The notes under the pieces: model-generated
The model's database searches: none
The model's input: the letters and a program-made list of their open reading frames with translations, nothing else
Told to the model about the DNA's origin: nothing
Program-made: the position numbers and the translations under genes
Source: Escherichia coli
Lineage (GTDB): Bacteria; Pseudomonadota; Gammaproteobacteria; Enterobacterales; Enterobacteriaceae
Reading direction: 5' to 3' (one strand)
DNA length: 312 nt
Assembly: GCF_003334255.1 (NCBI RefSeq)
Contig: NZ_QOWU01000267.1
In this document: positions 1-312 of the stretch, piece after piece
How the letters are laid out: each line of letters opens with the position of its first letter
Position numbering within the stretch: position 1 is the first letter of the stretch

Positions 1-135
1 TACTGCTTCAGAAAGTTCAGCAAAATCCATCTGGTAAAGTTCCATCAGATAAGTCAGCACGATATTCTGGTGAACGCAACTGCCATACTTATCCGTCAGT
101 GTGATGGATTTACCAGTCAGCTCAATATCTGTCAC
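1..135 (-). CDS. 5' end of a protein-coding gene (3' part lies beyond the window's left edge); hypothetical protein, start codon uncertain
   Basis: Seen in sequence: the minus-strand frame with codons at 144..142 down to 3..1 is open for 48 codons after an in-frame TAG (147..145): F L A V T D I E L T G K S I T L T D K Y G S C V H Q N I V L T Y L M E L Y Q M D F A E L S E A V. The other two minus frames each contain several stops across 1..156. Candidate starts are GTG 135..133, GTG 60..58, ATG 45..43 and ATG 30..28; none has a strong Shine-Dalgarno (best is a GGA about 10 nt upstream of ATG 30..28). Codons are enterobacterial-like (CTG x5, GAT, GAA, AAA), whereas the same-phase plus-strand ORF uses rare codons (AGA, ATA x2, CTA, GGA) and is Cys/His-rich. 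The end coordinate assumes the most upstream candidate start, GTG at 135; no hydrophobic signal-peptide-like N-terminus is visible. Confidence 0.55.
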   Translation of the reverse strand, partial: MTDIELTGKSITLTDKYGSCVHQNIVLTYLMELYQMDFAELSEAV

Positions 136-149
136 TGCCAGAAACTACC

Positions 150-176
150 AAAAAAACGCCTGCACAAGGCAGGCGT
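150..176 (-). terminator. Rho-independent (intrinsic) transcription terminator oriented for minus-strand transcription
   Basis: Seen in sequence: on the minus strand, 5'-(A)CGCCTGC-CTTGT-GCAGGCG(T)-3' (stem 175..169 pairing with 163..157, 7 GC-rich bp plus an optional A176-U156 pair; 5-nt loop 168..164) followed immediately by TTTTTTT (156..150). On the plus strand the same hairpin is preceded by an A7 run and followed by tggtgtaaaaaggg, which is not U-rich, so it is essentially unidirectional. It lies about 33 nt downstream of the TGA stop of the upstream minus-strand CDS. Confidence 0.8.
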
Positions 177-208
177 GGTGTAAAAAGGGAACAGCGTATT
201 CCGGTTAT

Positions 209-312
209 TCAGTCCTGGTTAAGCGTACCATTACACTGCACCGGGACGTAATCCAGAGCCTGCAGCAACTGCTCATCTGTCAGATCCAGAAAATCTTTGA
301 TTTCCTCCAGAG
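209..312 (-). CDS. 3' end of a protein-coding gene (5' part lies beyond the window's right edge); hypothetical protein with acidic C-terminal tail ...LEEIKDFLDLTDEQLLQALDYVPVQCNGTLNQD*
   Basis: Seen in sequence: the reverse complement of 212..310 reads ctg gag gaa atc aaa gat ttt ctg gat ctg aca gat gag cag ttg ctg cag gct ctg gat tac gtc ccg gtg cag tgt aat ggt acg ctt aac cag gac, then TGA (plus-strand tca at 209..211). The other two minus frames hit stops within about 30-40 nt of the window edge. Codon usage is typical of highly used enterobacterial codons (CTG x6, GAT x4, CAG x4). The only competing frame (plus frame 1, 184..312) has no ATG, GTG or TTG start. An intrinsic terminator sits about 33 nt downstream of the stop on the same strand, as expected for a gene end. 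Confidence 0.7.
   Translation of the reverse strand, partial: LEEIKDFLDLTDEQLLQALDYVPVQCNGTLNQD

Follow-up and report, generated by a model that had tools for sequence, protein, structure and literature searches.

An Rpn nuclease gene on an integrating conjugative element of Escherichia coli, with a predicted intragenic antitoxin and a tandemly duplicated rpnSs

The closest described relatives of the locus analyzed here are the Rpn proteins of Escherichia coli, among which RpnA (YhgA) forms a gene-within-gene toxin-antitoxin pair: the full-length protein (RpnL) is the toxin, and its small C-terminal domain (RpnS), which an internal start allows to be made on its own as well, acts as the antitoxin to it, with a crystal structure of the small domain, RpnA-S, available as PDB 7TH0 (Zhong et al. 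2023, PNAS, PMC10400941). The ribosome-binding site and internal start (iTIS) of RpnA were validated at residues K240 and M244 (PMC10400941), and mutagenesis of the same protein identified D11, D63, E82, Q84 and R94, along with D165 in a DDEI motif, as functional residues (Kingston 2017, PMC5350276). Duplication gave rise to separate small rpnS genes, ypaA/rpnESs and rpnCSs, which are expressed (Zhong et al. 2023, Fig. 2I, PMC10400941). The number of four-residue repeats located 8-20 residues after the initiating Met, in helix 1, varies between strains, and in RpnC a difference of one repeat abolished neutralisation (Zhong et al., Fig. 4D, PMC10400941). [quoted passage not shown] A search of the literature after 2023 for Rpn proteins borne by integrating conjugative elements (ICEs) yielded nothing beyond Zhong et al.

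Here, we describe an rpn gene carried by an ICE of E. coli, starting from a 312-nucleotide stretch of DNA (hereafter, the window). The window is a 100% match to E. coli STEC2018-553 and lies within an ICE, between ssb and pilL, in the gene order PFL_4669, TopoIII, STY4534, ssb, rpn, pilL, TIGR03759, TraD. On the minus strand, positions 310..209 translate to LEEIKDFLDLTDEQLLQALDYVPVQCNGTLNQD, followed by the stop codon, positions 311-312 being the final two bases of the preceding Ser codon; these 33 residues are residues 275-307 of a 307-aa Rpn (YhgA-like, PD-(D/E)XK) nuclease (Table 1). The initial annotation, made from the window, had described the tail as the end of an unidentified protein, suggested that the genomic neighbourhood be checked for a mobile context, and reasoned that in-frame stops just upstream would argue against a coding sequence. 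The neighbourhood is that of an ICE, and no such stops appear upon extension: the frame stays open through the whole gene in the source genome, so that the tail is where a genuine protein ends and does not come from a chance ORF. Positions 209-312 (minus strand) are assigned from sequence comparison to the 3' end of ICE-borne rpn, encoding a predicted Rpn/YhgA-like PD-(D/E)XK DNA endonuclease (RpnL). We consider it highly probable that the locus as a whole is an ICE-borne rpn gene-within-gene toxin-antitoxin module with a duplicated downstream rpnSs. A plus-strand ORF at 70..183 (37 aa) and the out-of-frame ORFs of the minus strand were set aside as by-products of the real rpn frame.

Table 1. 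Features of the window and of the rpn gene that extends beyond it (window positions unless preceded by L001, which refers to the locus in the source genome)
Feature	Position	Strand	Evidence or content
Full rpn ORF	L001 5181-6104	window minus strand	307 codons open in source genome
Codons 275-293 (+2 nt of codon 274)	254..312	-	helix 2 LEEIKDF, turn LDLT, helix 3 DEQLLQAL of RpnS domain
Codons 294-307 (DYVPVQCNGTLNQD)	212..253	-	predicted disordered C-terminal extension
TGA stop of rpnL/rpnS	209..211	-	translation, full ORF
Rho-independent terminator	149..176	-	ACGCCTGC-CTTGT-GCAGGCGT at 176..156, then T7 at 155..149
Duplication junction GGTAGTTTCTGGCAGTGACAGAT	127..148	-	matches neither flank; holds the GTG (135..133) used by RefSeq
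Start of second copy, equivalent to rpn codons 193-234	1..126	-	about 96% identical to L001 5757-5882

The protein that the initial annotation left without a family belongs to a known one. A Pfam scan of the full-length product matched PF04754 (Transposase_31) over residues 12-205 (E 2.2e-59, 200.9 bits), TIGR01784 covered residues 12-291 with 101.9 bits, above its curated cutoff of 52.1, and the RefSeq label of the upstream ORF, Rpn family nuclease, agrees. The annotation had reasoned that a well-characterised housekeeping family would remove any novelty; the family is indeed characterised, but it is a mobile toxin-antitoxin and defence family rather than a housekeeping one. Like RpnA, the ICE Rpn has a PF04754 PD-(D/E)XK N-terminal domain in which all mutationally defined residues are conserved, D11, D63, E82, Q84, R94 and D165 of RpnA aligning to D13, D65, E85, Q87, R97 and D169 (in TDDEI), respectively. 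The first five are invariant among 56 homologues; D169 is conserved in an alignment of 4 sequences, and in the 56-sequence alignment the adjacent D168 is the invariant residue. By family membership, the protein is predicted to be a Mg2+-dependent DNA endonuclease that would be toxic and would induce the SOS response.

Unlike what would be expected of RpnA itself, the ICE Rpn is 39% identical overall to the K-12 protein and scores 207.9 bits against the RpnA equivalog model NF007361, below the cutoff of 583, and it is encoded on an ICE, whereas RpnA resides at the feoC-bioH chromosomal locus. Rpn proteins of the ICE clade share less than 50% identity with any Rpn outside the clade, and beyond the E. 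coli ICEs, their nearest relatives are rpn genes of the ordinary chromosomal kind. The ICE rpn product is thus best classified as a distinct Rpn clade and not as an RpnA orthologue; in this uncharacterised clade, the gene takes up a constant cargo position, between ssb and pilL, in an E. coli ICE family.

The domain content of the C-terminal part was compared with that of other Rpn proteins. The scan of full-length Rpn gave no PF14261 (DUF4351) match over the C-terminal domain, not even with the limit set at E <= 10; DUF4351 is the annotation of separate rpnS genes in some species and, according to Zhong et al., is not required for membership of the class. The newer C-terminal family PF27070, which is present in most other Rpn proteins, is missing from the close clusters. 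In a Foldseek search of the PDB, the full-length AF2 model had no significant neighbour (best E 0.16); the weak matches include the PD-(D/E)XK enzymes EcoO109I, EndoMS, BspD6I, RecU and Card1, which are consistent with the family assignment and are not evidence for it. PADLOC-DB 2.0 (2023) contained no model matching the Rpn protein, a result that shows only that this library has no fitting model, and a PADLOC match of the small protein to DpdH (E 0.0035) was weak and taken as noise.

The internal start of RpnA is retained at the homologous position of the ICE gene, where K242 and M246 align with RpnA K240 and M244. As in RpnA, a Shine-Dalgarno (SD) sequence that includes the Lys codon precedes the internal Met, and the small protein begins with MTIAE, which is invariant at this position in 56 homologues. 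The AAGGGGGTGATC-ATG arrangement at M246 gives a 12-bp SD/anti-SD duplex of -21.3 kcal/mol, a value that speaks to the presence of the signal only. When the regions upstream of the internal start or rpnSs were scanned for sigma-70-like promoters (at least 9 of 12 matches), no consensus site was found, and manual inspection for an internal or rpnSs promoter turned up 3-of-6 hexamers only; we infer a promoter for the internal start or rpnSs.

In the mechanism we propose, the small C-terminal domain would be made alone, as a 62-aa RpnS starting at M246 behind its very strong SD, and the long first helix of RpnS would pair with the identical domain of RpnL, blocking the toxic nuclease. Separate translation of RpnS, its antitoxin action and any defence role are anticipated from the homologous E. 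coli proteins RpnA-E and RpnP2 (Zhong et al. 2023). Like RpnP2, the ICE Rpn would be a toxin-antitoxin module that travels as cargo on a mobile element, and as a gene-within-gene module rpn would probably aid phage defence or stabilise the element. Unlike plasmid-borne RpnP2, however, it is found on an ICE: tblastn of RpnS against 72,556 plasmids (PLSDB) returned only distant Rpn tails (<50% identity), in Erwinia, Pantoea and Arsenophonus, and the type-A tail described below was not plasmid-borne.

The predicted fold of the small domain agrees with that of its RpnA counterpart. AF2, run without templates on an input alignment that had RpnA-S as one row, modelled RpnS as a three-helix bundle (helices 3-25, 30-37 and 41-49; pLDDT 72.8), and the best PDB match of this model among 350,542 chains searched with Foldseek was 7TH0, RpnA-S (probability 0.99, TM 0.72, rmsd 2.1 A, 33% identity), the E-value reaching only 0.24 owing to the short domain. 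By sequence alone, the tail matched 7TH0 weakly (E 0.18 against the whole PDB). The tail alignment to RpnA-S is free of gaps, and the zero-repeat form of the small domain aligns without gaps to residues 1-47 of the 49 in RpnA-S. A search of the PDB with a profile built from the RpnS alignment returned 7TH0 at E 3.9e-16, which was not used, the comparison being circular since the profile itself contained RpnA-S; the designed PPR and helical-repeat proteins that topped the same search were rejected, their scores being sums of many sub-threshold repeat matches.

Helices 2-3 of the domain also resemble HTH DNA-binding domains (LuxR/GerE, sigma region 4, resolvase; Foldseek ranks 5-30), superposing at about 1.1-1.5 A over about 32-35 residues, with E-values all above 1, although the role demonstrated for the RpnA domain is protein-protein inhibition; Pfam gave weak matches to DUF433, MerR and HTH_68 on residues 263-295. 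These resemblances would suit a reading in which Rpn belongs to the DNA-processing or recombination machinery of the ICE, together with ssb, topoisomerase III and the replication genes, the HTH-like domain serving DNA binding or dimerisation; so would the slot between ssb and pilL, which lies among ICE core genes and is shared by all the variants examined, and the finding that overexpressed Rpn proteins raise RecA-independent recombination (Kingston 2017, PMC5350276). We nevertheless judge such a role improbable. Zhong et al. found no evidence of a transposase-like role but showed toxin-antitoxin and anti-phage behaviour in family members. Furthermore, the hypervariable repeats and swapped tail types detailed below are typical of conflict genes and not of core machinery, and the ordinary chromosomal location of the closest relatives outside E. 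coli ICEs points the same way, to the toxin-antitoxin reading.

Within this proposed toxin-antitoxin module, the 33-residue tail comprises two unlike parts. The initial annotation had called it acidic and probably amphipathic helical. It is acidic (8 acidic residues and 1 basic, with 7 Leu and 4 Gln) and partly helical, but it does not form one amphipathic helix. AF2 on the full-length protein places residues 275-281 and 286-293 in two short helices with a turn between, and the hydrophobic moment of each is not significant against shuffles (p about 0.2), p = 0.03 being obtained only with residues 275-293 taken as one helix; the single amphipathic helix was accordingly rejected in favor of a helix-turn-helix. 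Residues 275-293 are common to full-length RpnL and the internally initiated RpnS. The last 14 residues, 294-307, form no helix in either AF2 model, pLDDT falling below 50 over 297-307, and this extension is confined to the "type A" ICE Rpn clade, being absent from RpnA and other Rpn tails. In this respect as well, the ICE Rpn differs from RpnA, its disordered C-terminal extension of 14-15 residues (LDYVPVQxNGxLNQD) being unique. The Cys that had been singled out in the terminal segment is no family feature: among the copies examined, it occurs in the tails of two strains only, STEC2018-553 and 2015C-3121, and all others, the downstream duplicate of the source strain included, have Arg (CGT) at this position, apart from one with Ser (AGT). 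The Arg-to-Cys and Ala-to-Thr changes in the extension are private to the upstream gene copy, and the other copies read VQRNGALNQD.

The tail was also said to be followed by its own terminator and a second unidentified gene. The first of these statements is borne out by an 8-bp stem, 6 GC, followed by T7, with a hairpin energy of -14.1 kcal/mol; an identical copy of the terminator lies after the duplicate (L001 6578-6598). Terminator-like sites in the region number 10, against 1.4 expected from shuffles, several of the sites overlapping and both hairpin copies being counted. Rfam matches on the window, to asX2 (23.8 of 70 bits) and RyhB (19.7 of 55 bits), both over the terminator hairpin, were sub-threshold and discarded.

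An annotated ORF does follow, as stated, but it is a tandem duplicate of the rpn 3' end and not an independent gene. L001 6187-6605 duplicates 5757-6163 at about 97% identity, terminator included, such that the duplicated unit is the last ~408 bp of rpn, from codon 193 through the terminator, and the two copies differ by a 12-nt GAGAAAGGTCTG indel. Because the second gene duplicates the 3' end of the same gene, the acidic tail and the "second gene" belong to a single phenomenon, that of the Rpn toxin, intragenic antitoxin and duplicated rpnSs published in 2023. A rough dN/dS between the copies of about 0.4, hand-counted from 9 substitutions, is uninformative.

The duplicate contains an intact 66-aa ORF (L001 6346-6546), whose ATG, with the SD AAGGGGGTGATC, lies 34 nt beyond window position 1; compared with the upstream RpnS, its predicted product carries an additional LEKG repeat within helix 1 and two changed tail residues. 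The real rpnSs product is probably this 66-aa RpnS paralogue, with its start outside the window, and window positions 1..126, although annotated as coding, more likely represent the 5' leader or promoter region of rpnSs. Judged by its sequence and arrangement, the downstream copy qualifies as an rpnSs gene comparable to K-12 ypaA. As in rpnE-ypaA (rpnESs) and rpnC-rpnCSs, a tandem direct 3' duplication has produced a separate RpnS-like ORF immediately after rpn, the small copy has its own upstream gene as its closest relative, the number of four-residue repeats is variable, and loss or fusion variants exist, here as states in NCTC9112, APEC E19035 and TUM1886. The ICE case differs from these two pairs in belonging to another rpn clade, with independent events and two distinct junctions within this ICE family, and in having the terminator included in the duplicated unit.

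RefSeq represents the second ORF as a 122-aa "transposase" starting from the GTG at window position 135. The names given to the duplicated ORF vary between transposase, hypothetical protein, RpnC/YadD family and DUF433, and the RefSeq start codons are probably wrong, exposing an annotation problem in which the same ORF stands under four names. Should the 122-aa ORF (VTDIELTGK...) be what the second gene actually encodes, the product would be a longer C-terminal fragment of Rpn that takes in some of the non-catalytic PF04754 region. Of 6 type-A strains, 5 have an open frame running from the junction GTG, and the ORF is called by PGAP and matched by TIGR01784 on residues 25-106 (31.6 bits, below cutoff); an open frame, however, is what one would expect by default when an in-frame duplication is recent, and PGAP starts differ for the same DNA (82 vs 87 aa). 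The GTG lacks an SD, the duplex there having -3.7 kcal/mol, compared with -21.3 for the internal ATG. NCTC9112 has lost the long frame through a 1-nt deletion that interrupts the remnant shortly before the ATG, whereas the 66-aa ORF is intact and annotated, and the type-B duplication retains only about 75 nt (about 25 codons) upstream of the ATG. We regard the 122-aa product as very improbable and retain the 66-aa RpnS paralogue as the candidate product.

Among 5426 complete E. coli genomes, the junction seen in the window (junction A) is present in 18 and an independent junction B in 32, and 50 of the 53 genomes with an ICE rpn carry one of the two. The rpnSs duplication hence arose at least twice in this ICE family and is the majority state. 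All rpnSs copies that were read (10/10) retain the SD, the ATG and an intact ORF of 61-70 aa.

The copies vary in the number of repeats. Among 8 representative alleles, 0-7 units of (L/R)(E/K/A/V)(K/E)G are inserted after RpnS residue 11, the DNA unit being GAGAAAGGTCTG. In 5 of 6 arrangement classes, RpnSs carries a single LEKG unit, against 0-7 in RpnL, and the repeat numbers of RpnL and RpnSs are usually mismatched. Because a one-repeat difference abolished neutralisation in RpnC, RpnSs, which is one repeat off RpnL/RpnS in the locus described here, may not be an antitoxin for its neighbour. The Rpn toxin-antitoxin system with a duplicated rpnSs has been known since 2023, and this mismatch is the oddity that remains; given the published rule by which antitoxin specificity is determined by repeat number, it raises the question of what the rpnSs copies are for.

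One answer would be that the downstream copy is a functionless, decaying by-product of a recent tandem duplication and that only the upstream rpnL/rpnS matters. The about 97% identity between the copies implies that duplication or homogenisation was recent; no consensus promoter was found, RefSeq names are inconsistent, and a repeat number unlike that of the neighbouring RpnL should, by Fig. 4D of Zhong et al., prevent neutralisation. Decay is nonetheless an unlikely explanation of two independent duplications with different junctions kept in 50/53 genomes and of translation signals and small ORFs preserved in every copy read, even in NCTC9112 with its broken upstream frame; moreover, the K-12 analogue ypaA is translated (PMC10400941).

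What rpnSs might do can be outlined tentatively. We entertain, as a speculative and on balance doubtful proposal, that rpnSs is a deliberately non-cognate cassette and not a spare cognate antitoxin, serving as a recombination donor, an immunity factor or a modulator. As a donor, it could allow the ICE to switch the RpnL/RpnS specificity domain by deletion or fusion; as an immunity factor, it could neutralise the RpnL of competing ICE variants entering the same cell; and as a modulator, it could titrate RpnS, tuning toxin release. Unlike rpnESs and rpnCSs, the ICE family also includes one strain with two rpnSs copies and one lineage in which a type-A RpnL stands beside a type-B-tailed RpnSs.

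Extension beyond the window leaves the reading frame open, and the 33-residue tail proves to be the 3' end of a 307-codon gene, which codes for an Rpn nuclease and carries that annotation in RefSeq. Of 5426 complete E. coli genomes, 53 contain related sequence, chromosomal every time. The initial annotation recognized no family in the fragment; the full-length protein, however, matches Pfam PF04754 (YhgA-like Transposase_31) over residues 12-205 (E 2.2e-59) and scores 101.9 bits with NCBIfam TIGR01784, whose curated cutoff is 52.1. The RpnA equivalog model aligns along its full length (residues 7-291 to model positions 5-289) but scores 207.9, far under its cutoff of 583, so the protein is an Rpn but not an ortholog of RpnA (39% identity to K-12 RpnA); neither was membership in DUF4351 found. 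Mutation of D11, D63, E82, Q84, R94, or D165 (DDEI motif) inactivates or alters RpnA (Kingston et al. 2017, PMC5350276), and the aligned counterparts here are D13, D65, E85, Q87, R97, and D169, the first five of them invariant across 56 homologues.

The nearest protein-database clusters share its tail type at 96% identity or have another tail type at about 75%; all others fall below 50%, which delineates a distinct clade of Rpn proteins borne essentially on integrating conjugative elements (ICEs) of E. coli. In addition to PF04754, most Rpn homologues have a second precomputed Pfam assignment, PF27070; it is absent from this clade (clusters P0001-P0011), whose C-terminal domain seems to escape the model. 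The closest database entry, P0001 (313 aa, a 204-sequence cluster), has an irregular repeat region, EEKGLEGRRSGAEERSRL, in place of EEKGLEKGRAEERSRL, which could be a compensated frameshift in the dodecamer repeats.

The gene is flanked upstream by a PFL_4669-family protein, topoisomerase III, an STY4534-family replication protein, and ssb, and downstream by PilL, TIGR03759, a transglycosylase, a restriction endonuclease, and TraD. All of them belong to the core gene set of an ICE. The 199-aa "restriction endonuclease" weakly matches two PADLOC models, one for a type IV methyl-directed restriction enzyme (E 1.9e-4) and PDC-S02 (E 4e-5), and may be a second defence-type cargo gene of the ICE.

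Coordinates of features in the window, in the locus of the source genome (L001), and in equivalent ICE loci of other strains
Feature	Position	Strand	Details
Window in E. coli STEC2018-553	NZ_CP075665.1 2771283-2771594	reverse	100% identical
Window in L001	L001 6001-6312		window minus strand
rpn ORF	L001 5181-6104		307 codons
Tail	window 310..209	minus	LEEIKDFLDLTDEQLLQALDYVPVQCNGTLNQD*; TGA stop at 211..209
rpn codon 302	window 227-229		TGT (Cys)
rpn intrinsic terminator	window 176..156 (stem), 155..149 (T7)	minus	stem ACGCCTGC/GCAGGCGT; loop 5 nt; hairpin -14.1 kcal/mol
Sub-threshold Rfam matches asX2, RyhB	window 70-176; 150-222	+; -	rejected
Open frame VTDIELTGKSITLTDKYGSC...	window 135 (GTG)	minus	runs off window
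Next ORF	L001 6178-6546		RefSeq "transposase"
Tandem copies	L001 5757-6163; 6187-6605		alignment of L001 5730-6180 with 6150-6620
Duplicated internal SD-ATG	L001 6346		66-aa ORF
LEKG repeat sites compared	L001 5937-5950 vs 6367-6392		and equivalents in L004, L005, L008, L011
Inverted repeat GAAAATCTCTGGAGGAAATCAAAGATTTTC	window 289-312 and beyond; L001 5995-6024, 6437-6466		inside KSLEEIKDF coding sequence
"Restriction endonuclease"	L001 9937-10536		199 aa
S19-651 chimera	L003 3001-4362
NCTC9112 deletion	L004 4190-4203		1 nt
SCU-171 tandem rpnSs	L006 4022-4856		period 454 bp

Rpn genes are genes-within-genes in which the variable C-terminal domain is also translated alone, as RpnS, from an internal start; RpnS binds the full-length protein, RpnL, whose toxic nuclease activity it blocks, the structure of RpnA-S is a dimeric three-helix bundle, and protection from T-even phages is documented for at least one member, RpnP2 (Zhong et al. 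2023, PMC10400941). Residues M246 and K242 of the ICE protein align with M244, the internal start validated in RpnA, and with K240 of its ribosome-binding site, and the "MTIAE" at this start is invariant across the family. The DNA upstream of it (AAGGGGGTGATC-ATG) can pair with the 16S 3' end over 12 bp (-21.3 kcal/mol); the rpnL start gives -10.7 and the GTG annotated for the second ORF -3.7. The predicted 62-aa RpnS aligns gap-free with positions 1-47 of the 49 residues of RpnA-S in PDB 7TH0 (E 0.18 against the whole PDB, 0.006 pairwise). AlphaFold2 placed helices at residues 239-270, 275-281, and 286-293 of the full-length protein (pLDDT 79, falling below 50 at 297-307), and the same three helices in RpnS alone. 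In a Foldseek search of 350,542 PDB chains, the RpnS model matched 7TH0 best (probability 0.99, TM 0.72, rmsd 2.1 A; E 0.24, non-significant for so short a domain, with RpnA-S in the input alignment), followed by helix-turn-helix domains.

From the RpnA alignment and the modeled helices, the tail corresponds to helices 2 and 3 of RpnS with the turn between them, plus a disordered extension, DYVPVQCNGTLNQD, absent from RpnA and the other Rpn tails. The acidic, D/E/L/Q-rich composition noted initially is borne out (8 acidic residues against 1 basic, 7 Leu, 4 Gln), and the helical reading holds for helices 2 and 3. The Cys is not a family feature: codon 302 is TGT (Cys) in the window, CGT (Arg) in most copies, and AGT (Ser) in the downstream copy of 2013C-3033, and apart from the one with Ser the other alleles that were read have VQRNGALNQD. 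That near-identical copies differ in three ways at the first position of this codon may reflect noise in a disordered tail, or it may point to diversifying selection. An imperfect inverted repeat in the codons for KSLEEIKDF, which scored as terminator-like on the opposite strand, has 11 pairs counting G-T, only 3 of them GC, and an 8-nt loop; it is probably due to chance or codon-driven.

The terminator attributed to the gene is a textbook intrinsic one, on the same strand and downstream of the tail. Rfam matches over its hairpin, to asX2 (23.8 of 70 bits) and RyhB (19.7 of 55 bits), were taken as chance. The second gene reported beyond it exists as an ORF but is no longer unidentified, being a tandem direct copy of the rpn 3' end, rpnSs, that spans codon 193 to the gene's end, with stop and terminator included. 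About 9 substitutions in the coding part set the two copies apart, together with 3 changes beyond the stop (a 1-nt indel and two substitutions) and one 12-nt indel, GAGAAAGGTCTG, encoding LEKG; the 22-nt junction between them matches neither flank. The same arrangement has precedents in rpnE-ypaA and rpnC-rpnCSs (Zhong et al. 2023, PMC10400941).

As annotated, the downstream ORF is 122 aa long and uses a GTG that the junction created and that has no Shine-Dalgarno sequence (SD), whereas the duplicated internal SD-ATG opens a 66-aa protein, MTIAEQLEEKGLEKGRAEER...VQRNGALNQD. In NCTC9112, a 1-nt deletion between SD and ATG (AAGGGGGGATTATG vs AAGGGGGTGATCATG) breaks the frame of the upstream remnant and brings SD and ATG closer together but leaves the 66-aa ORF intact, the only one called by PGAP ("DUF433 domain-containing protein"), and the independent duplication in ICEs with the other (type B) tail retained only about 75 nt upstream of the ATG. 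Both support the short product, so that window 1-126 is most likely not coding but a 5' leader or putative promoter region of rpnSs; a promoter scan found no consensus promoter for rpnSs or the internal start. RefSeq gives essentially this one ORF four names (transposase, hypothetical protein, RpnC/YadD family protein, DUF433 domain-containing protein) and start codons yielding 66, 82, 87, 117, 122, or 126 aa.

A search for the window's duplication junction located it at 19 places in 18 genomes, and the independent type-B junction in 32, so rpnSs is present in 50 of the 53 genomes with this rpn. The tandem pair in SCU-171, two identical copies each with a terminator, extends the range of the duplicated unit to 0 to 2 copies among strains. 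Exactly one LEKG unit is found in rpnSs of 5 of 6 arrangement classes, across two independent junctions, and 0 to 7 in the upstream rpnL/S.

Repeat units between EEKG and RAEER at the ICE slot ssb / rpn / pilL, read in representatives of every identity class
Strain or class	RpnL repeats	rpnSs
APEC E19035	3	none
TUM1886 (L011)	7	none
STEC2018-553 / 2015C-3121	0	one copy, 1 repeat
2013C-3033	0	one copy, 1 repeat
S19-651 class	1	one copy, 1 repeat, type-B tail
NCTC9112	3	one copy, 1 repeat
SCU-171	2	two copies, 2 repeats each
SF-088 / GF4 class (type B)	5	one copy, 1 repeat

RpnA orthology, DUF4351, and an internal promoter aside, the RpnL/S plus rpnSs architecture and Rpn membership hold for every feature testable in silico; the tail is a real feature, correctly read, of a published kind of system, whose closest known relatives are RpnA L/S, rpnE-ypaA, rpnC-rpnCSs, and the plasmid-borne RpnP2. 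A literature search found no paper on an ICE-borne Rpn, and the survey of Zhong et al. may already include the clade. By homology to the systems in that work, RpnS would be made separately and dimerize through helix 1 with the RpnL C-terminal domain, silencing the nuclease; released RpnL would damage DNA, with a possible role in phage defence or element addiction, and RpnSs would be translated from its own copy of the internal start. The number of four-residue repeats in the first RpnS helix varies among strains and sets L/S specificity, and in RpnC unequal numbers abolished neutralization (Zhong et al. 2023, PMC10400941). Given the unequal numbers here, most RpnSs are expected to be non-cognate to the neighboring RpnL. 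That such mismatched copies are specificity-switching cassettes, or cross-immunity factors between ICE variants, is a speculative and rather improbable reading.

S19-651 and 12 similar genomes are chimeric: RpnL carries a type-A tail, SRLVLMMRQKGKSLEEIKDF...NQD, and the downstream rpnSs a type-B tail, KKALEATYASVRRMSDMGMSTEVIKQALQLSDEQIREALHN, with a type-B 3' flank. This has the look of two ICE alleles having undergone unequal crossover, or of a C-terminal domain replacement caught midway.
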